A stretch of DNA of 64,000 nt from Adlercreutzia sp. ZJ176 (GCF_011038975.1 NZ_JAAKEC010000015.1:18501-82500); one strand, 5' to 3'. Shown: positions 4,333 through 46,420, counted from the first letter of the stretch. The notes: generated by a model not told the origin, from the letters alone. Numbers and translations: made by a program.

Positions 4333-4520
4333 AGGGGGAATTTTGGCAGAAATCTTCAGATATTTGTCATCTGGGGAGTGCTGTTTGGGTCTTTTTGGGT
4401 TTCTGCTCTTGGCGTGCTCGGCAAAACACCAGGTCAGTTTTCCTCACCATTATCTTATGCATCCATGCGGAGGAGGTTTCCCCCTCAAATCGACAAATAT
4501 CTGAAGATTTCTGCCAAAAT
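4333..4520. mobile_element. MITE-like element: ~190 bp AT-rich segment bounded by 28-bp perfect terminal inverted repeats
   Basis: ttttggcagaaatcttcagatatttgtc at 4341-4368 is exactly reverse-complementary to gacaaatatctgaagatttctgccaaaa at 4491-4518. GAGGGGG and CCCCCTC sit next to the two arms. Local GC is far below the window average. No transposase is present. Confidence 0.45.
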
Positions 4521-7007: not shown

Positions 7008-7252
7008 GGCGGCGCGATGCGGCTGCGGCGCGGGCGCGGAGCGTTGGCCGCAGCTTCGAGCTGCGCTGCGGCGCGGGCGCACGACGGCTTCGCCGCCCGC
7101 GATCAGCGGCCTCGTTCGCTCGCAAACCTTACACGAATGCAACGAATGGGCGCGTTTTGCGGGCAAACGTCTTATAATTGCCTTGTCGAGATGAACGATG
7201 CGCCACGCCGGAGAGCCCGGGGCAGCGGCGCAGGGAAAGGGGACGAAGAAAG

Positions 7253-8077
7253 ATGAAGATCAAGAAGTGGGGCGCGCTCGTCGCCTGCGGCGCGCTGGTC
7301 GCGGCGCTCGGCCTGTTCGGCTGCTCCTCGAACAACGCCGCGAGCTCGGCGAGCTCCTCTGCGGCCGCTGACGGCGACGCGGGCAGCCTCACGCTGCTGA
7401 AGGAGGGCACCCTCACGGTGGCCACGTCGCCTGACTACCCGCCGTTCGAGAACCTCGAGGACGGCGAGTACGTGGGCTTCGACATCGACCTCGCGAAGGC
7501 TGTCGCCGAGGAGATGGGCCTCGAGTGCGAGTTCGTGAGCCTGCAGTTTGACGGCATCACCCCGGCCATCGCCGCGGGCGGCCAGGCTGACGTGGGCTTC
7601 TCCGGCATCTCGGTGGATCCCAAGCGCGCCAAGGAGATCGACTTCACCGACTCCTACTACATTGACGACCAGGCCGTCGCCGCCATGAAGGGCGGTGCCA
7701 TCACGCCTGACAACGCCGCTGCGGAGCTGAACAAGGAGGGCGTGGTCATCGCCGTCCAGTCCGGCACCACCGGTGAGACGTACGCCCAGGAGAACTTCCC
7801 GAACGCCACCGTCAAGGGCTACGGCAACTCCACGGACTGCTTCGCCGCGATGCAGTCGGGCAACGCCACCGCCGTGTGCACCAACCTCGCGGTGGTGAAC
7901 CGCATGCTGGAGAGCGCCTACGCTGACGCGCAGGTCGTCATCGAGGTCGCCACGGGCGAGGAGTACGCCGCCGTGGTCGCCCAGGACAACCCTGAGCTGA
8001 CCGAGGCCATCAACGCCGCGCTCAAGACGCTGAAGGACAACGGCACGCTCGACGAGCTGACCAACAAGTGGTTCTAG
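7253..8077 (+). CDS. Amino-acid ABC transporter substrate-binding lipoprotein
   Basis: Lipoprotein signal MKIKKWGALVACGALVAALGLFGCSS followed by a polar amino-acid SBP family 3 fold (TLTVATSPDYPPFE...GFDIDLAKAVAEEMG). Confidence 0.85.
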   Translation: MKIKKWGALVACGALVAALGLFGCSSNNAASSASSSAAADGDAGSLTLLKEGTLTVATSPDYPPFENLEDGEYVGFDIDLAKAVAEEMGLECEFVSLQFDGITPAIAAGGQADVGFSGISVDPKRAKEIDFTDSYYIDDQAVAAMKGGAITPDNAAAELNKEGVVIAVQSGTTGETYAQENFPNATVKGYGNSTDCFAAMQSGNATAVCTNLAVVNRMLESAYADAQVVIEVATGEEYAAVVAQDNPELTEAINAALKTLKDNGTLDELTNKWF

Positions 8078-8173
8078 CGCCACGCAGTTCCTCACGTGGA
8101 ATTCCGGGCCCTTCCCGCCTCAGTCGGGCGGGAAGGGCCTCCTTTTCTCTCGCACCTGATCGGGGGAGTCGCC

Positions 8174-9766
8174 ATGACTGATCCAACCGCATCTGCAACC
8201 GCATCTGCCCGCCGCTCCAACGTTTCCGCCCCGCGCGCGACGGCCCGCGCCGCCCGCCCGCGCGATCCCCGCCGCGCCGCCGCCCGCCGCCTCTTCGTCG
8301 GCGCGCTCATGGCGCTCGCGCTTCTGTGCGGCGCCGTGCTGGCGCAGGCCGCCCAGCCCTCAGAGGCGCTGGCGCTCGACACCGCCAAGTGCACCGCGCG
8401 CCCCAACGGCGACACGGGCTCGGAGGTCTACGGCGCCACCGAGACGCGCGTCACCTGGGAGGGCCAGGCCGCCCCCGACGAGTCGCTGACCGCCCTCGAG
8501 CTCACCATGCCCGAAGGGACCACCTTCGGCCTGGACGACGCGCGCGTGATGCTGCTGTCGGGCGACAACCTCATGACGCGCGACATCCCCGACGTCGAGT
8601 TCTCCGCTGACGGCGAGACGCTGCGCGCCGTGTTCGCCGAGCCGACGGTCCCCGGTTCCTACGTGCGCGTCGAGGTGTACGAGGTGTTCTTCCCCGCGGA
8701 GGGCGGGGCCATGGGCTTTTCTGGCTCCTACACCACTGCCGAGGGCGACACGCTGCCCATCGACGACGTCACGCCCATCCAGGTGACGGGCAAGAGCGCG
8801 TTCGACCAGCTGGTGAGCAACCTCGAGCAGCAGGAATGGGTGAAGCAGTGGAACTCCAACAAGTTCCTGCGCCTGTTCTTCAACCCGCCGCTCATCGTGT
8901 CGAGCATCCCCGTGGTGTTCAACGGCTTCCTCATGGCCATCGGCATCGTGGCCGTGGCGTTCCCCGTGGCCATCCCCATCGGCCTCCTCCTGGCGCTCAT
9001 GCGCATGTCGAAGTGGCGCGTGCTGCGCGGCATCGCCACCACGTACGTGAACGTCGTCCGCGGCACGCCGCTGTTCCTGCAGATCTACATTGCGTTCTTC
9101 GGCCTGCCGCTGGCGGGCGTGCAGATCCCGTCGTTCCCGCTCGGCGTGATTGTGCTGTCGATGAACTCGGCGGCGTACCTGTGCGAGATCTTCCGCGCGG
9201 GCATCCAGTCCATCCCGAAGGGGCAGTTCGAGGCGTCGCGCAGCCTCGGCATGAACGGCGCGCAGACCATGGTGTTCGTCATCATCCCGCAGACCGTGCG
9301 CCGCGTGATCCCCACCATGACCAGCGAGTTCATCCTGCTGTACAAGGACACCTCGATGCTGGCCGCCGTGGGCGTCATGGAGGTGGTCATGTACGCGAAG
9401 ACCATCGTGGCCTCCACGGGCTCCATTACGCCCTACATTGTGGCCGCGTGCTTCTACCTGATCGTCACGCTGCCGCTGGCGAAGGTGGTCGGGAAGCTCG
9501 AGAGCCGCCTGGCGGGCACGGCGGCGCCGAAGAAGCGCAGGAAGAAGGGCGCGGGCGCCGTGGCGAGCGCGGCAGGCGCAGGCGCTGCGGGAGCGGGCGC
9601 GTGTGCGGGCGCGGGCGCGAGCGTGGGCGTGACGGGCACCGACTCGGCGGGCGTCACGGGGCTCGCGACCGACGTGCTCACCGCGCAGCCGCTGCTCAAG
9701 AACGAGCTCGGCGACGGCTTGGGCGGCTTTGGCGACCACAGCTTCGGCATGAAGAACACGAAGTAG
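8174..9766 (+). CDS. Amino-acid ABC transporter permease with a ~270-aa N-terminal extracytoplasmic domain and low-complexity C-tail
   Basis: N-terminal TM ([18 protein letters not shown]), then ~250 aa with no TM segments, then a His/Gln-type permease core ([13 protein letters not shown]...[16 protein letters not shown]...[21 protein letters not shown]), and a C-terminal Gly/Ala-rich tail. Confidence 0.8.
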
Positions 9767-9776
9767 AGGAGCGGTT

Positions 9777-10811
<1,035 letters not shown>

Positions 10812-10919
10812 CGCGCGGCGTGGCGCGATGCGGCGGGGCAAAGGGTGCGCATGCCCTTGCCCCGCCGTCTCATCCGCCCCGGGCTCTTGAAGCCCGAATC
10901 GCCGACAAGCTCTCTTCTG

Positions 10920-11150
10920 GGCTGGATCCTTAGGGCCCAGAGGATCGTGCGTCGAAATCACCGACAACGCCCCCTTTGCATCCACGGTTCTGAAAAGCTG
11001 ACTGGAGAACGCCCGTTGTCGGTGCTCTGGGCCCCTAAAACCACCGACAACGCGCATTCTCCAGCCACTTTTCTCAAAAAACCACCGATAACGGCCTCGT
11101 TTCATCCAGAATCGCCTGAGGGGTGGATGGAAAAGCACCGTTGTCGGTAA
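10920..11150. repeat. Composite hairpin repeat element, copy 1 (same family as 46060-46270)
   Basis: Nested inverted repeats caccgacaacg...cgttgtcggtg. The block aaaaccaccgataacggcctcgtttcatccagaatcgcc(t/a)a(g/a)gggtggatggaaaa is nearly identical in both copies. It is intergenic. Confidence 0.6.
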
Positions 11151-11367
11151 CGCCGTCGGCGACCAGCGTGCGGAGCGGGAGGAGCCGGTAAGGCAGCAGG
11201 AACCGGTAAGTCAACGCGAGCCGGCAAGGGCCGTTTCGCCTATAATGGCCGAAACGGCTTGCATCCCCTGCGGCAGGTGGCTCCGAAAGGCGGTGACGGC
11301 ATGGCATTGTCTCGCTACACGCTCATTTCGGCACCTCGCCAAGGGTACACCCTCGGGCAGCGGCTTT

Positions 11368-11398
11368 GCGCCCCGTCGCTCCCTGTGGGGCGCTTTTT
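11368..11398 (+). terminator. Intrinsic terminator/attenuator hairpin inside the 5' leader of the amidinotransferase gene
   Basis: gcgcccc gtcgctccctgt ggggcgc followed by ttttt. It lies ~85 nt upstream of the start codon and downstream of a tataat box at ~11243. Confidence 0.5.
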
Positions 11399-11482
11399 CC
11401 CTGTGACGTGGCGGTTTGTTAATGCACTCTACGGCAAAAGGTGGTATAACGTCGGAGGCTAGTAAAATGAAAGGAGATTTTC

Positions 11483-12631
11483 ATGGCGAAAATCGTTAAT
11501 TCCTGGAATGACTGGGATCCGCTGAAGCACGTGATCGTCGGCCGTTGCGACAACGGCATGATCCCGCCCGAGGAGCCCGCGACTTCCGAGAAGGTTCCGG
11601 TCGACTCCGACATGCGCGGCATGTGGGGCCTGCGCCCGCTGCGCACGGTGGAGAAGGGCAACGAGGCCCTCGACCGCCTGGTGAAGATCCTCGAGGACCG
11701 CGGCATCAAGGTCGACCGCCCGACGCCGCTGCAGTGGAACCAGAAGATCGCCACGCCCGACTTCACGAACGACTCCATGATGGGCTGCATGCCGCCGCGT
11801 GACGTGCTGCTCACCATCGGCAACGAGATCATGGCTGCCGCGCAGTCCTTCCGCTGCCGCTACTTCGAGTACCTGGCGTACTGGCCGCTGATGGAGAAGT
11901 ACTTCGAGGAGGATCCCGAGTTCAAGTGGACCCAGGCTCCGCGTCCTCGCCTGACTGACAAGTCCTACAAGCACAACTACTACGACGAGTCCATCACGCT
12001 CGAGGAGCGCCTGGTGCGCACCGCCAACAAGGACTTCGTGACCACAGAGGTCGAGCCGATGTGGGACGCCGCCGACTGGATGCGCATGGGCAAGGACATC
12101 TTCGTCCAGCACGGCCTGACCACCAACCGCGCCGCCATGGACTGGATGCAGCGCTACCATCCCGAGCTGCGCATCCACGCCGTGAACTTCCCCGGCGACC
12201 CGTACCCCATCCACATCGACGCCACCTTCGTGCCGCTGCGTCCGGGCCTGATCATCAACAACCCGGTGCGCCCGCTGCCCGAAGAGCAGCGCGCCATCTT
12301 CGAGGCGAACGACTGGCAGATCGTCGAGGCGGCCAAGCCGGCTCACACCGAGCCGCCCGAGCTCTGCTACAGCTCCGTGTGGCTGTCCATGAACTGCCTG
12401 GTCCTCGACCCGAAGACGGTCGTCGTGGAGGCTTCCGAGGTCTACCAGATGGAGCAGATGGACAAGCTCGGCATGAACGTCATCCCCTGTGACCTGCGCG
12501 ACGCCTACCCGTTCGGCGGCGGCCTGCACTGCTGCACCGCTGACGTCTACCGCGAGGGCGGCTGCGAGGACTACTTCCCGAACCGCGTCAAGGACACCAC
12601 GCTCGTGCGTCCGGAGATGTGGAACGACTAG
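11483..12631 (+). CDS. Amidinotransferase, close homolog of L-arginine:glycine amidinotransferase (AGAT/StrB1 family)
   Basis: NSWNDWDPLKHVIVGRCDNGMIPP, TPDFTNDSMMGCMPPRDVLLTIGNEIMAAAQSFRCRYFEYLAY and FVTTEVEPMWDAADWMRMGKDIF align motif-for-motif with vertebrate AGAT and Streptomyces StrB1. The C-terminus GGGLHCCTADVYREG carries the catalytic Cys motif GGG(F/L)HC. Confidence 0.85.
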   Translation: MAKIVNSWNDWDPLKHVIVGRCDNGMIPPEEPATSEKVPVDSDMRGMWGLRPLRTVEKGNEALDRLVKILEDRGIKVDRPTPLQWNQKIATPDFTNDSMMGCMPPRDVLLTIGNEIMAAAQSFRCRYFEYLAYWPLMEKYFEEDPEFKWTQAPRPRLTDKSYKHNYYDESITLEERLVRTANKDFVTTEVEPMWDAADWMRMGKDIFVQHGLTTNRAAMDWMQRYHPELRIHAVNFPGDPYPIHIDATFVPLRPGLIINNPVRPLPEEQRAIFEANDWQIVEAAKPAHTEPPELCYSSVWLSMNCLVLDPKTVVVEASEVYQMEQMDKLGMNVIPCDLRDAYPFGGGLHCCTADVYREGGCEDYFPNRVKDTTLVRPEMWND

Positions 12632-12736
12632 CCTTGTTTCGCTCGCCCTGGCGGGATGAGCGGGTTGCTCGGCGCTGCGGGAGCCCTCGCTGACGTTGCG
12701 AGCGGCCTGCGAGCTTGCCGAGGGTTTGCTATGATG

Positions 12737-12771
12737 AGCTGGCACGCAGCTGAGCTGCGTGCCAGCTTTTT
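12737..12771 (+). terminator. Rho-independent terminator after the amidinotransferase gene
   Basis: agctggcacgcagc tga gctgcgtgccagc followed by tttttg. Confidence 0.7.
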
Positions 12772-12791
12772 GATGCGCGGGAAGGGGTTTC

Positions 12792-13823
12792 GTGGGCGGT
12801 GACGGCGGCAAGAGCGACGGCGGCAAGGGCAACGACGGCTTTCAGATGGACAAGCGGCGCGGCGTCATCGCGCTGCTCGTGGCCACGACGGGCATGGGCC
12901 TGTCGGGGCTGCTCAACCGCGGTTCCACGCGCGTCGACTTCTTCGGCGGCGAGCTCGTGGCGGGCGAGTCCATCGGCGCGTTCATGACGGTCGGCCGCAT
13001 GGGCATGGGGCTCGTGCTCTTCGCCATTCTGCTCGTGCTCACGCACAAGACGGCCCTCTTCCGCCGCACGCGGATTTCGCCCGCCATCGTGCTCGGCGGG
13101 CTCTCCGTGGGCGTGTCGTTCGCGTTCTACCTGGTGAGTGCGCTGCTTACCTCGCTCGCCAACGCGGTGTTCCTCATCTACACGGGGCCTTTGTTCTGTA
13201 CGCTGCTCGCGCGCGCGTTCCGCAAGGAGCCCATCAGCCGCTTCCAGGGGCTGTGCCTCGGCGCGGTGTTCGCGGGCATGCTGCTCACCTCGGGCGTCGT
13301 CTCGGTAGGGTCGGGCGGCGTGAGCGTGGGCTTCTCCCTGGGCGCCTCCACGCCGGAGTTCCCCCAGAAGGGCCTCGGCGACGCGCTCGGCCTCCTGTCA
13401 GGCGTGTTCTACGGGCTGTCGCTGTTCTTCAACGGCTACCGCAAGGACTGCGACTCCACGGTGCGCGGCGTGTGGAACTTCCTGTTCGCGACGGTAGGGT
13501 CGCTTGCCGTCGCGTGCGCCATGTGCGCGGCGTGGCCGCTCGGCGAGGTGGCGATGACCCCTGCGAACTGGGGGTTCGCCCTGGCGCTCTGGATTATCTG
13601 CGGGCCCGTGGGCCTCGGCTTTCTGCTCGTGGCGGGGCGCAACCTGCCGGCCGTGGAGTACTCCACCATCTCGTACTGGGAGTGCGTCGTGTCGCTTCTG
13701 ACCAGCGTGCTCGTGTTCCACGAGGCCATGACGGCGGGTACCGTGATCGGCGGCGCGCTCATCATGCTCGGCGGCGCGCTGCCCGCCTTCCAGGCGCTGC
13801 GCGGCTCGGCGGCCCGCCCCTGA
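12792..13823 (+). CDS. EamA/DMT-family transporter
   Basis: 10-TM hydrophobic profile with EamA-like repeats. Start uncertain: the GTG at 12792 has a GGAAGGGG RBS; an alternative ATG at 12846 (MDKRRG) has no RBS. Confidence 0.65.
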   Translation: MGGDGGKSDGGKGNDGFQMDKRRGVIALLVATTGMGLSGLLNRGSTRVDFFGGELVAGESIGAFMTVGRMGMGLVLFAILLVLTHKTALFRRTRISPAIVLGGLSVGVSFAFYLVSALLTSLANAVFLIYTGPLFCTLLARAFRKEPISRFQGLCLGAVFAGMLLTSGVVSVGSGGVSVGFSLGASTPEFPQKGLGDALGLLSGVFYGLSLFFNGYRKDCDSTVRGVWNFLFATVGSLAVACAMCAAWPLGEVAMTPANWGFALALWIICGPVGLGFLLVAGRNLPAVEYSTISYWECVVSLLTSVLVFHEAMTAGTVIGGALIMLGGALPAFQALRGSAARP

Positions 13824-14276
13824 CCTGCCGCCCGGGTCCCGCGCGGCCCGCCAGCTGCCGCCCGGGCTCTGCGCAAGCCCTGCCGGATCGACTCTGTCCC
13901 TCCCCTGACGTATACGCGGCTCGTCGCTCGCCCGCTGACCTGCCGCTCGCCCGCTGTAAAGCGCCGTTAACCCGTTATTTCCCCCCGCATCCTCCCTCGT
14001 GAGGGGCGTGTAAAGCGCTGTTGAAAGGCGGGTATGATACGGTATTCGTGTAGAAGAGTCCGCGCAGGGGGCGGGCTAACAGGTAGTCAGCAGATCGATG
14101 TGAGCGCGGCGGAAGGCTCGTCGTGCATTGGGCTGATTCTTCAGCTTGCGGGATCCAGCGATTCGTAGACTGGTTGGTTGGCTTCCTCTTGCCGAAGCTC
14201 GAGATGGTGCGTGAGGCGCGCCGCGTGACGCGGCCGCTTGCGCGCGCCGTGAGGCAACAGGGAAGGGAAGCGGTTC

Positions 14277-15623
14277 ATGAGCGAGAGCACCAAGGCTGCC
14301 CCAACGGCGGCCTATACTGCCGACGAACAGCAGAAGACCCTCAAGAAGGTGGTCTTCTCCTCGTTCTTGGGAAACTTTATCGAATGGTTCGACTACGCGA
14401 GCTACTCATACCTCGCGACGGTCATAGCGTTGGTGTTCTTCCCCGACGCGGACAAGACCGTCGCCGTCATGAGCACGTTCGGCGTGTTCGCGCTGTCGTT
14501 TCTGGTGCGCCCCGTCGGCGCCATCTTCTGGGGCAACATGGGCGACAAGAAGGGGCGCAAGTGGGCGCTGTCCATCTCGATCCTGCTCATGAGCGGCGCG
14601 ACGTTCCTCATCGGGTGCCTGCCGGGCTACGCCGTGCTCGGCGTCGGCGCGCCGCTGCTGCTTCTGCTGCTGCGCATGCTGCAGAGCTTCTCGGCCTCGG
14701 GCGAGTACGCTGGCGCGGCCACGTTCATCGCCGAGTACGCGCCGAAGAACCACCGCGGCTTCTACTGCTCCATGGTGCCGGCCTCCACGGCAGCGGGCCT
14801 GCTCATCGGCTCGATGTTCGCCACGTTCATGTTCAACACCTGGGGCGCCGACTCGTCGTTCGTGATCGAGTGGGGCTGGCGCATCCCGTTTCTGCTGGCG
14901 CTGCCCCTCGGCTACATCACGCACTACATCCGCACGCACCTGGAGGACTCGCCGGTGTACGCCGAGATGCAGCGCAAGCTCGAGTACACGGGCAACCCGC
15001 CTGAGAAGCAGCCCATCCGCACGCTGCTCACCAAGCACTTCAAGGTGCTCATCATCTCGTTCGGCGCGTGCGTCCTCAACGCCGTGGGCTTCTACGCCGT
15101 GCTCACCTACCTGCCGAACTACCTGGAGACCACGCTCAGCTACGACGCGAGCGCGGCATCGACCATCACCACCATCGTGCTCGTGGTCTACATCGCGTTC
15201 ATCTTCCTGTCAGGGCGCGTGTCCGACCGCTTCGGCCGCAAGAGGATGCTCATCATCGCGTGCGTGGGCTTCATCGTGTGCACCATCCCGGCGTTCATGC
15301 TGCTCGGCACGCTCGACTTCACGGTTATCCTGGTGGTGGAGCTTCTGATGTGCCTCATCCTCACCATCAACGACGGCACGCTGGCGAGCTACCTCACCGA
15401 GACGTTCCCCACCGAGGTGCGCTACTCGGGCTTCGCGCTGAGCTTCAACCTGGCCAACGCCATCTTCGGCGGCTCGGCGTCCTACGTCTCGTTCTGGTTG
15501 ATCTCGATGACGGGCAGCGACATCGCGCCCGCGTTCTACATGGTGTTCATCGCGGCGATCGCGCTGGTGGCCATGGTCGCCTCGCACGAGCACACGAACA
15601 AGGACCTCTCCGAGGTGCGGTAG
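14277..15623 (+). CDS. MFS transporter, metabolite:H+ symporter (MHS/ProP-like) family
   Basis: FLGNFIEWFDYASYSYLA...RPVGAIFWGNMGDKKGRK is the MHS family signature. 12 TM segments. A strong RBS (GGGAAGGGAAG) precedes the ATG. Confidence 0.85.
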   Translation: MSESTKAAPTAAYTADEQQKTLKKVVFSSFLGNFIEWFDYASYSYLATVIALVFFPDADKTVAVMSTFGVFALSFLVRPVGAIFWGNMGDKKGRKWALSISILLMSGATFLIGCLPGYAVLGVGAPLLLLLLRMLQSFSASGEYAGAATFIAEYAPKNHRGFYCSMVPASTAAGLLIGSMFATFMFNTWGADSSFVIEWGWRIPFLLALPLGYITHYIRTHLEDSPVYAEMQRKLEYTGNPPEKQPIRTLLTKHFKVLIISFGACVLNAVGFYAVLTYLPNYLETTLSYDASAASTITTIVLVVYIAFIFLSGRVSDRFGRKRMLIIACVGFIVCTIPAFMLLGTLDFTVILVVELLMCLILTINDGTLASYLTETFPTEVRYSGFALSFNLANAIFGGSASYVSFWLISMTGSDIAPAFYMVFIAAIALVAMVASHEHTNKDLSEVR

Positions 15624-15848
15624 GCGCGCGCTGGCGCCCCGCTGCGCGACTGTGAGGCGCCTGGCGTGGCTGGGGGCTTTCGCGTTCGCTGGCTTCGCTG
15701 GGGGCTTTCGCGTGCGTCGCTGGCGTGGCTGGAGGCTTGGCACGTGCGTTGGCGTGGCCGGAGGCTTGGCGCGCGTCGGCTTGCGCGCGGCGTCTCTCGC
15801 TTCGCTCCGATGTCCTGCTGTGCGTTTTCCCTGAGCCCTCCCGTCTGA

Positions 15849-16694
<846 letters not shown>

Positions 16695-46059: not shown

Positions 46060-46270
46060 TGAGGCACTGCGGAACCGATAACGACGTTTTTTCATCCACC
46101 TCCTCGGGAAAGGTGGATGAAACGAGTCCGTTATCGGTGCCTCGAGCCTCGAAAACCACCGATAACGCGGTTTTTCCAGCCATTTTTTCCAAGAAACCAC
46201 CGATATCGGCCTCTTTTCATCCAGAATCGCCAAAGGGTGGATGGAAAACTGCCGTTATCGGTGGTCTGCT
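46060..46270. repeat. Composite hairpin repeat element, copy 2 (same family as 10920-11150)
   Basis: ccgataacg...cgttatcgg nested inverted repeats, and the shared ~60-bp block ...accaccgata(a/t)cggcctc(g/t)tttcatccagaatcgcc...ggtggatggaaaa. Confidence 0.6.
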
Positions 46271-46296
46271 TCGGGAGGGTGGGTCTCGACGGCCTG

Positions 46297-46420
46297 CTTT
46301 AGGGAGGCGGGACGGCAGCCTGCCCCGGGGGCGCGGGCGGGACGGCAGCCTGCCTCGGAAGCACGAACGGGACGGCAACCTGCCCCGGAAGCGTGAGCGG
46401 GACGGCGACTTCCCTCAGGG
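46297..46420. repeat. 30-bp direct tandem repeat, 4 units (GGGACGGCAGCCTGCC(C/T)CGGAAGC...)
   Basis: Read directly. The units are contiguous with no spacers. Confidence 0.6.

Follow-up and report, generated by a model that had tools for sequence, protein, structure and literature searches.

A conserved amidinotransferase–transporter cassette in Adlercreutzia and its relatives, with a possible role in the salvage of host guanidino acids

A gene at positions 11483-12631 (plus strand) of a 64,000-nucleotide stretch of Adlercreutzia sp. ZJ176 DNA (GCF_011038975.1 NZ_JAAKEC010000015.1:18501-82500; hereafter the window) encodes a 382-residue homolog of glycine amidinotransferase (AGAT). The gene is part of a cassette – amidinotransferase, EamA transporter and a transporter of the major facilitator superfamily (MFS) – that is conserved across the Eggerthellaceae, Cutibacterium acnes and the Neisseriaceae, and within a known fold family the enzymes make up a clade of their own, which is widespread, mis-annotated and as yet uncharacterised. 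The reading that we favour, at a probability of roughly 0.45, is that the cassette would use guanidino acids derived from the host: the amidino group of creatine or guanidinoacetate would be passed to ornithine, giving arginine, in a salvage reaction. The locus is not under riboswitch control, and the hairpin that precedes the gene is no new riboswitch candidate.

The enzyme and its relatives

A phmmer search of the PDB aligned residues 5-365 of the 382 with human AGAT (1JDW/1JDX) at E=1.6e-81 and 277 bits, with 40.5% identity. The catalytic Cys lies in a C-terminal GGGLHC motif, and the gene is accompanied by two transporters, an EamA protein (12792-13823) and an MFS protein that is probably of the metabolite/H+ symporter (MHS) type (14277-15623); the initial annotation, which described an AGAT-like protein of 382 residues with a GGG(L/F)HC motif, flanked by two such transporters, was accurate in these respects. 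The catalytic triad (Cys407/His303/Asp254 in human numbering) is intact and is kept in 116-121 of 121 clade members; Asp170, Asp305, Arg322, Ser354 and Ser355, which bind arginine or ornithine, are also present and are kept in at least 120 of the 121. The position of human Asn300 is Tyr in all 121 members and that of Met302 is Ile in 120. From the structural literature on AGAT and StrB1 we take these two to be specificity-flap residues that shape the choice of substrate. As judged from its residues, the window enzyme fits the AGAT/StrB1 fold family and appears to lack the flap residues of a strict glycine-specific AGAT.

Full-length homology, the triad and the Asp/Asp/Arg/Ser/Ser ligand residues are thus common to the window enzyme and vertebrate AGAT/GATM (EC 2.1.4.1; 1JDW), and a reversible ping-pong chemistry via a Cys-amidino intermediate is probably common to both. 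The window enzyme differs in its Tyr/Ile pair, in having no mitochondrial presequence and in its setting, a cassette of transporters from which guanidinoacetate methyltransferase is missing; the direction that we propose is also reversed, towards arginine. No Pfam-A or NCBIfam family matches the protein at E<=1e-3, which is a matter of model coverage and not of lack of homology, and a look-up of its exact sequence found nothing on record. Its codon usage is native, with a G+C content at third codon positions (GC3) of 0.94 (0.94-0.96 across the three cassette genes), and the window holds no second copy.

A protein search at E<=1e-3 yielded at least 2,494 relatives, and among GTDB species genomes a scan detected the gene in 330, which disposes of the earlier suggestion that bacterial members are rare. 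The best 120 relatives share 70-95% identity with the window protein, and scores within the clade run from 630 to 871 bits. These relatives occur in the Eggerthellaceae, where the gene is near-universal and lies in a syntenic core region, in C. acnes, Trueperella, Neisseria, Kingella and Wielerella, and in alpha-, beta- and gamma-proteobacteria. Their RefSeq/PGAP name is mostly 'serine/threonine protein kinase' (in Cutibacterium, Neisseria, Kingella, Trueperella, Slackia, Hugonella and Adlercreutzia; examples among the database relatives are P0015, P0016, P0031 and P0161), while other sources use 'inosamine-phosphate amidinotransferase' or 'glycine amidinotransferase'. The kinase label looks like a systematic mis-annotation, and probably arose because no Pfam or NCBIfam model covers the clade.

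Amidinotransferases of this fold are known from the production of antibiotics and toxins, among them StrB1 (streptomycin), SxtG (saxitoxin) and HsvA, which share the fold and catalytic residues and were detected directly, and CyrA (cylindrospermopsin) and AmtA (phaseolotoxin homoarginine), which we place with them by description and not by sequence. This homology is what speaks for the window gene belonging to an unrecognised secondary-metabolite pathway. However, SxtG (1e-60, 209 bits), HsvA (1e-56, 196 bits) and StrB1 (1e-45, 160 bits) all score below vertebrate AGAT and far below the clade itself, in a placement that is a ranking by bit score and not a formal phylogeny. Further, those enzymes sit in biosynthetic clusters, whereas the neighbours here are transporters and the housekeeping genes pyrH, frr and uppS. 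Clustering of neighbours over 96 related loci gave transporters, TetR regulators, an ABC importer, a RelA/SpoT-type protein and housekeeping genes, with no recurring polyketide synthase, nonribosomal peptide synthetase or tailoring genes. With no hidden biosynthetic cluster in these 96 loci, and with the gene near-universal in a syntenic core region of the Eggerthellaceae, we regard a role in such a pathway as extremely improbable.

A conserved cassette

Far from standing alone, as had been stated, the gene recurs with the same partners across phyla. Counts were made on the 66 AGAT copies for which 4 kb or more of the sequence downstream was available. An MHS-type MFS gene lies on the same strand within 6 kb of 53 of them, and an EamA homolog within 2.5 kb downstream of 38; a TetR-family regulator (PF00440) is found near 32, a conserved 186-residue protein (X186) with 24, and a creatininase with five. 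The fullest form is AGAT-EamA-X186-MFS-TetR. X186, for which there is no Pfam, NCBIfam or PDB match, is located between EamA and either the MFS gene or creatininase (10574-11134 in L027, 7362-7922 in L119, and about 25 further loci).

C. acnes has the order AGAT-EamA-MFS with a divergent TetR gene, and Neisseria animaloris and Wielerella bovis have AGAT-EamA-creatininase-EamA-MFS. The enzymes of these three species are ~81-83% identical to that of the window, which suggests lateral spread of the cassette among host-associated bacteria. The window itself carries a reduced arrangement: an ABC importer, the AGAT-like gene, EamA and MFS. In A. faecimuris two small open reading frames (ORFs) stand between the AGAT-like gene and EamA (L015, 9305-9960), the first of which resembles, by eye, a Phd/YefM antitoxin.

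Several genomes hold two AGAT copies with 98.3-100% DNA identity, yet the MFS genes paired with these twins are clearly different (~69% versus 79% identity to the window MFS). Examples are L038 (1578-2717 and 6728-7867), L071 (747-1892 and 5159-6304), L051 and L052. The near-identity of the twins suggests gene conversion or very recent duplication, and it accounts for the contigs of ~1,146 bp that contain the gene only (L049, L054, L059, L060, L065 and L067).

A link to creatinine degradation

Comparison of orthologous contexts, which the initial annotation had proposed, shows not only that the cassette recurs but that in several lineages a creatininase lies inside it, in some cases along with a BCCT transporter. 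Those of the Neisseriaceae and of an Eggerthellaceae metagenome-assembled genome (L071) score 328-337 bits against the equivalog model TIGR04448, for which the cut-off is 235; further homologs lie in the cassettes of Rubneribacter and Gordonibacter sp. An230. Cassettes with creatininase are thus on record from the Neisseriaceae, from three Eggerthellaceae genomes and from 8 contigs of metagenomes. The idea that this small locus deals with a guanidino compound is strengthened accordingly, since the same genes travel together in three distant groups and are joined by creatininase in several lineages; the regulated leader that went with that idea does not survive.

The search was also run in reverse, from creatininase outward through 80 metagenome loci. 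Close relatives of the enzyme usually occupy the neighbourhood EamA-creatininase-MFS. AGAT is on the creatininase contig in 8 loci, including one 502-kb contig with TetR-AGAT-EamA-X186-creatininase-BCCT-MFS, and in 13 other loci creatininase stands beside a creatinase-like M24 gene (Creatinase_N plus Peptidase_M24). AGAT and a creatinase-like gene occur together in none of the 80, and none of the 96 AGAT loci contains a creatinase-like gene. Since chance would give ~1.3 overlaps for 8 and 13 loci out of 80, this mutual exclusion is suggestive but not significant.

Classical clusters with creatininase and creatinase, such as that of Pseudomonas putida, resemble the AGAT-type clusters: their creatininases belong to one subfamily (>50% identity), an MFS protein of MHS type is present, and BCCT or NCS1 permeases are frequent. 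With MFS proteins adjoining creatininase the window MFS shares 52-53% identity, in AGAT-type and creatinase-type clusters alike; MHS members with different substrates are usually far less alike. The two types differ in that classical clusters have their own creatinase-like M24 hydrolase, which yields sarcosine and urea. AGAT-type clusters never have one, and would instead transfer the amidino group to ornithine; the window also differs in having no creatininase.

Work on gut bacteria gives some physiological context. Colonisation of gnotobiotic mice by Eggerthella lenta consistently lowered colonic creatine, and a creatininase gene was found in E. lenta but none for the next step (PMC11149096). 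A 2025 review recognises only two creatinine routes, by creatinase and by N-methylhydantoin (PMC12623156). In the literature that we searched, the clade, the cassette and bacterial creatine:ornithine transamidination are all undescribed, although most subscription journals lay outside the coverage and prior work may exist.

A salvage model and its competitors

If the cassette serves salvage, then we envisage the following sequence of events. The MFS protein, probably a proton symporter by type, would import a guanidino acid in zwitterionic form, creatine or guanidinoacetate being the most likely, and the enzyme would form its Cys-amidino intermediate from this donor. The amidino group would then pass to L-ornithine to give L-arginine, while the de-amidinated product, sarcosine or glycine, would leave by way of EamA or be metabolised. 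Arginine is a known energy substrate of these bacteria, and AGAT is reversible, the reaction of guanidinoacetate with ornithine to give arginine and glycine included. Arginine would enter the arginine deiminase pathway (presumed to exist in this bacterium), giving ATP and regenerating ornithine, so that ornithine would act catalytically. In relatives with creatininase, creatinine would join the same route, and the AGAT-like enzyme would take the place that creatinase has in the classical clusters. A bolder claim can be made: that the clade as a whole consists of creatine (or guanidinoacetate):ornithine amidinotransferases replacing creatinase, and so provides a third, non-hydrolytic route for creatine and creatinine. 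By this route anaerobes that live with a host (Eggerthellaceae, C. acnes and Neisseriaceae) would turn the guanidino group of host creatine into arginine, and arginine would feed ATP formation through the arginine deiminase pathway while ornithine is recycled as a catalytic carrier. This we offer tentatively and consider somewhat improbable.

A number of points weigh against salvage. Neither the direction of the reaction nor its substrate can be read from sequence. Mammalian AGAT is not known to accept creatine as a donor of amidino groups, and guanidinoacetate is as good a candidate here. EamA-family proteins are mostly exporters, which suits a biosynthetic role also. TetR, X186, creatininase and BCCT genes are all absent from the 64-kb window (creatininase by tblastn), and the environmental proteobacterial homologs (~72% identity) have no cassette. 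The exclusivity of AGAT and creatinase is statistically weak, suggestive at best, and confounded by phylogeny, and the promoter positions given below are predictions from sequence conservation. Lastly, sarcosine fell in the E. lenta-colonised mice, and did not rise (PMC11149096); a salvage reaction from creatine would require either further consumption of sarcosine or a different product.

The enzyme might alternatively work in the direction of synthesis, taking the amidino group from arginine and passing it to an acceptor such as glycine or a different amine; EamA would then export a guanidinoacetate-like product and the MFS protein would import acceptor or arginine. This is the physiological direction of the nearest characterised relatives, vertebrate AGAT (E=1.6e-81) and SxtG, and it is consistent with the conservation of all arginine/ornithine-binding residues, with the typical export function of EamA-type proteins and with the Lys/Arg/Orn-type ABC importer that lies just upstream in about 20 loci. 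Against it stands the absence of any methyltransferase, kinase or other enzyme that could use the product from all 96 loci, together with the repeated recruitment of a catabolic enzyme, creatininase, and of uptake-type transporters (BCCT, MHS). It is also hard to rationalise why arginine-hungry organisms should spend arginine on an excreted product, and E. lenta consumes creatine and does not produce it (PMC11149096). We therefore judge synthesis and export to be fairly unlikely.

Salvage might also proceed from a different donor – homoarginine, 4-guanidinobutyrate, 3-guanidinopropionate, taurocyamine, a methylated arginine or canavanine – with creatininase an occasional addition. Creatininase is, after all, present in only 5 of 66 AGAT neighbourhoods and not in the window; the Tyr and Ile that the clade has in place of human N300 and M302 suggest that its substrate pocket differs; and the tandem modules, in which near-identical enzymes are paired with different MFS paralogs, suggest more than one substrate. 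N,N-dimethylarginine, moreover, likewise fell in E. lenta-colonised mice (PMC11149096). What makes this explanation unlikely in our estimation is that the MFS subfamily of the window adjoins creatininase in both AGAT-type and creatinase-type clusters, and that no other substrate-specific enzyme, such as guanidinobutyrase, is ever linked to the cassette. On balance, salvage from creatine or guanidinoacetate is the account that we prefer.

The region upstream of the amidinotransferase gene

The ~230 nt before the AGAT-like gene had been read as a leader under riboswitch or attenuation control. According to this explanation, transcription starts at a TATAAT box at ~11243 and is halted, depending on a ligand, at 11368-11398, and a second riboswitch occupies 13824-14276, upstream of the MFS gene. 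The elements themselves exist. TATAAT is found at 11241-11246, and the hairpin at 11368-11398 (plus strand), of modest stability (-17.5 kcal/mol, z=-1.8), is followed by TTTTT and stands 85 nt 5' of the ATG. The fold of the MFS spacer (z=-2.06), with two short blocks common to one relative, can be counted in favour of the second riboswitch. However, a consensus scan of 10700-16000 scored no sigma-70-like promoter, at ~11243 or elsewhere, and the fold of 11250-11482 is no more stable than those of shuffled sequences (z=+1.5).

Covariance-model searches were equally negative. Rfam cmscan gave no match at the gathering score anywhere in the window, and thus none in either supposed leader, guanidine families included; a permissive scan of 10700-16000 (E<=10) returned only five weak matches of eukaryotic miRNA/lncRNA type, attributable to chance, and a very weak one to the sRNA Chloroflexi-1 (E=9.6); and a scan of 8 orthologous loci, again with the guanidine riboswitches, returned none. 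To the guanidine-I/II/III/IV riboswitches, known as ykkC, mini-ykkC, ykkC-III and mepA, and to terminator-based attenuators the window is alike only in having a T-run hairpin upstream of a gene of guanidino metabolism; it differs in having no covariance-model match, no conservation, no excess structure and a hairpin that lies 5' of the conserved promoter.

Conservation was assessed by comparing the three intergenic spacers with all loci by BLAST at word sizes 11 and 7. Matches were limited to a block with promoter and ribosome-binding site and to one 19-nt block. Upstream of the AGAT-like gene, only the final ~70 nt of the spacer match among the 96 related loci: 10812-11420 has no counterpart in any of them, and the hairpin at 11368-11398 none either. 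Within the conserved part we predict the AGAT promoter on the plus strand, with a -35-like ATGCAC (11422-11427), a 17-nt spacer and an extended -10 element, TGGTATAAC (11442-11450), followed by a strong ribosome-binding site, GAAAGGAG (11469-11476, plus strand), 6 nt 5' of the ATG. The pattern TGG.ATAA is invariant across 7 species (alignment A1), as is the ribosome-binding site in alignments A1 and A6. Of 91 upstream regions, 30 contain a TG-n-TATAA motif, which lies between -41 and -65 in Adlercreutzia-type loci and between -174 and -187 in those of Gordonibacter/Enteroscipio type. Such conservation suggests that 11422-11450 functions as the AGAT promoter. With this promoter 3' of the hairpin, the 5' untranslated region (UTR) of the AGAT transcript would be only ~25 nt long.

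The hairpin at 11368-11398 is most likely a terminator, or insulator, against read-through from the ABC operon. In one relative with a 324-nt spacer a terminator-like hairpin is likewise positioned between the ABC operon and the conserved promoter, and the hairpin of the window would similarly halt transcription coming from the ABC operon and the repeat-filled spacer. Relatives have a TetR-family regulator instead, and ~260 nt of the supposed leader is a dispersed repeat that also lies upstream of rpoB. The data thus describe an ordinary terminator, without any leader structure that orthologs conserve, which is the outcome that the initial annotation had named as counting against its regulatory model; control by a riboswitch or attenuator is very improbable. 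A leader upstream ORF (uORF) had also been entertained; the two candidate ORFs (11245-11406 and 11259-11462) show no GC3 periodicity, where genes in this region have GC3 >0.9, and were rejected. No other frame of the spacer has this bias either, and a small gene or uORF in the spacers was discarded on the same ground.

The remainder of the spacer, which measures 672 nt from the ABC ATPase gene to the AGAT-like gene, is a mosaic of distinct elements. Directly after the ATPase stop is a strong hairpin without a T-run (10831-10867, plus strand; -35.3 kcal/mol, z=-4.4). It is followed by a copy of a dispersed intergenic repeat (10890-11156, no strand assigned) with CACCGACAACG motifs, of which the window has 12 matches against 1.5 expected. 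A second copy, at 46066-46262, upstream of rpoB, is 78% identical over 134 nt. The repeat carries CACCGACAACG/CACCGATAACG motifs in both orientations, and each copy is trailed by short tandem repeats, at 11175-11229 (three 18-nt units with a GAGCCGGTAAGG core) and at about 46290-46410. It may be an element like a repetitive extragenic palindrome or a miniature inverted-repeat transposable element, or else a cluster of protein-binding sites; the copy at 10890-11156 is no part of the AGAT leader. The TATAAT at 11241-11246 is enclosed by a palindrome (11230-11258) that is not conserved among relatives.

A long leader of a different kind is seen in Gordonibacter/Enteroscipio-type loci (L023, L027, L028, L029, L040, L042, L062, L072, L073 and L074), where it is found ~180 nt 5' of the AGAT-like gene. 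Its features are a conserved 5' block, CAACGGCAAATCTGG, and, directly ahead of the Shine-Dalgarno sequence, a hairpin in which a few compensatory changes are seen. Rfam gives no match for this leader, and the window lacks it.

The transporter genes and their signals

The AGAT-like gene ends in an intrinsic terminator (12736-12775, plus strand) with a perfect 15-bp stem and TTTTT (-30 kcal/mol, z=-5.0), the equivalent of which follows the gene in relatives; the gene is therefore monocistronic. The GTG start of EamA is only 17 nt past this hairpin, so that expression of EamA needs either read-through or a transcription start inside the hairpin arm. A TATGAT (12730-12735, plus strand) lies immediately 5' of the hairpin. 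The EamA/DMT transporter itself (12792-13823, plus strand; 343 residues) matches PF00892 with two repeats (E=5.9e-19).

EamA and MFS genes are separated by 453 nt, in which tblastn gave no signal of a decayed X186 gene. A -10-like element, GGTATGATA (14031-14039, plus strand), may serve the MFS gene, the same motif being present 5' of orthologous MFS genes. It would leave a putative 5' UTR of ~230 nt (14045-14276, plus strand) that is moderately structured (z=-2.06, as above); the two short blocks are shared with an Adlercreutzia relative, L019 (alignment A2), and neither Rfam nor BLAST against the related loci gave a match or wider conservation. The MFS protein (14277-15623, plus strand; 448 residues) matches Pfam Sugar_tr (3e-38) and MFS_1 (2e-36). 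Its top NCBIfam match is TIGR00883, at 375.8 bits (cut-off 443), and the ProP model scores 341 bits, both under cut-off; PDB searches with the EamA and MFS proteins were uninformative.

In relatives, 15 of 21 regions upstream of an MFS gene contain a uORF of 16-31 codons with its own Shine-Dalgarno sequence, ending a few codons past the MFS start (for example L022 5091-5171, L029 11431-11511 and L038 8117-8167). The frame is kept and the peptides differ, and these uORFs may bring about translational coupling or leader-peptide control. The corresponding candidate in the window starts from an ATG at 14204; its Shine-Dalgarno sequence is weak and its frame runs on for 266 codons before any stop, and it was not counted.

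The window and the upstream importer

The window has a GC-content of 66%. Its nearest protein match is Adlercreutzia sp. ZJ304 (98%) and its nearest DNA match A. faecimuris (91%), by database and genome scans. With pyrH, frr and uppS adjoining the cassette downstream, the locus is core genome and not an island. No creatinase was found in the window.

Upstream of the spacer lies an ATP-binding cassette (ABC) importer for polar amino acids (7178-10811, plus strand; Pfam SBP_bac_3, BPD_transp_1 and ABC_tran), comprising a binding protein (7178-8077), a permease (8096-9766) and an ATPase (9777-10811). The binding protein has as its top NCBIfam match the Lys/Arg/Orn subfamily TIGR01096, at 172 bits, which is under cut-off; synteny places such an importer upstream of the AGAT-like gene in ~20 related loci. 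Two features are unusual for this type of transporter: the ATPase has an N-terminal extension of ~100 residues (9777-10100) made of Ala/Pro/Gly-rich repeats (APDAPTSDA...), and the permease has a low-complexity tail (9540-9766) that resembles it. Farther upstream is an AT-rich, perfect, intergenic 29-nt inverted repeat, ATTTTGGCAGAAATCTTCAGATATTTGTC (4340-4368 and 4492-4520), with arms 123 nt apart; the whole (4340-4520) looks like a miniature transposable element.

Implications

If the salvage model is true, then it would explain how Eggerthella and its relatives remove creatine without creatinase, a gap that is stated in PMC11149096. It would link the host pool of creatine and creatinine with arginine use in a bacterial family that is already implicated in the metabolism of drugs and diet, and would add a new route of creatinine degradation, with a bearing on extrarenal creatinine clearance in kidney disease and on commensals of the skin and mouth. 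Irrespective of mechanism, the hundreds of RefSeq entries that carry the name of a kinase hide this family from metabolic reconstructions.

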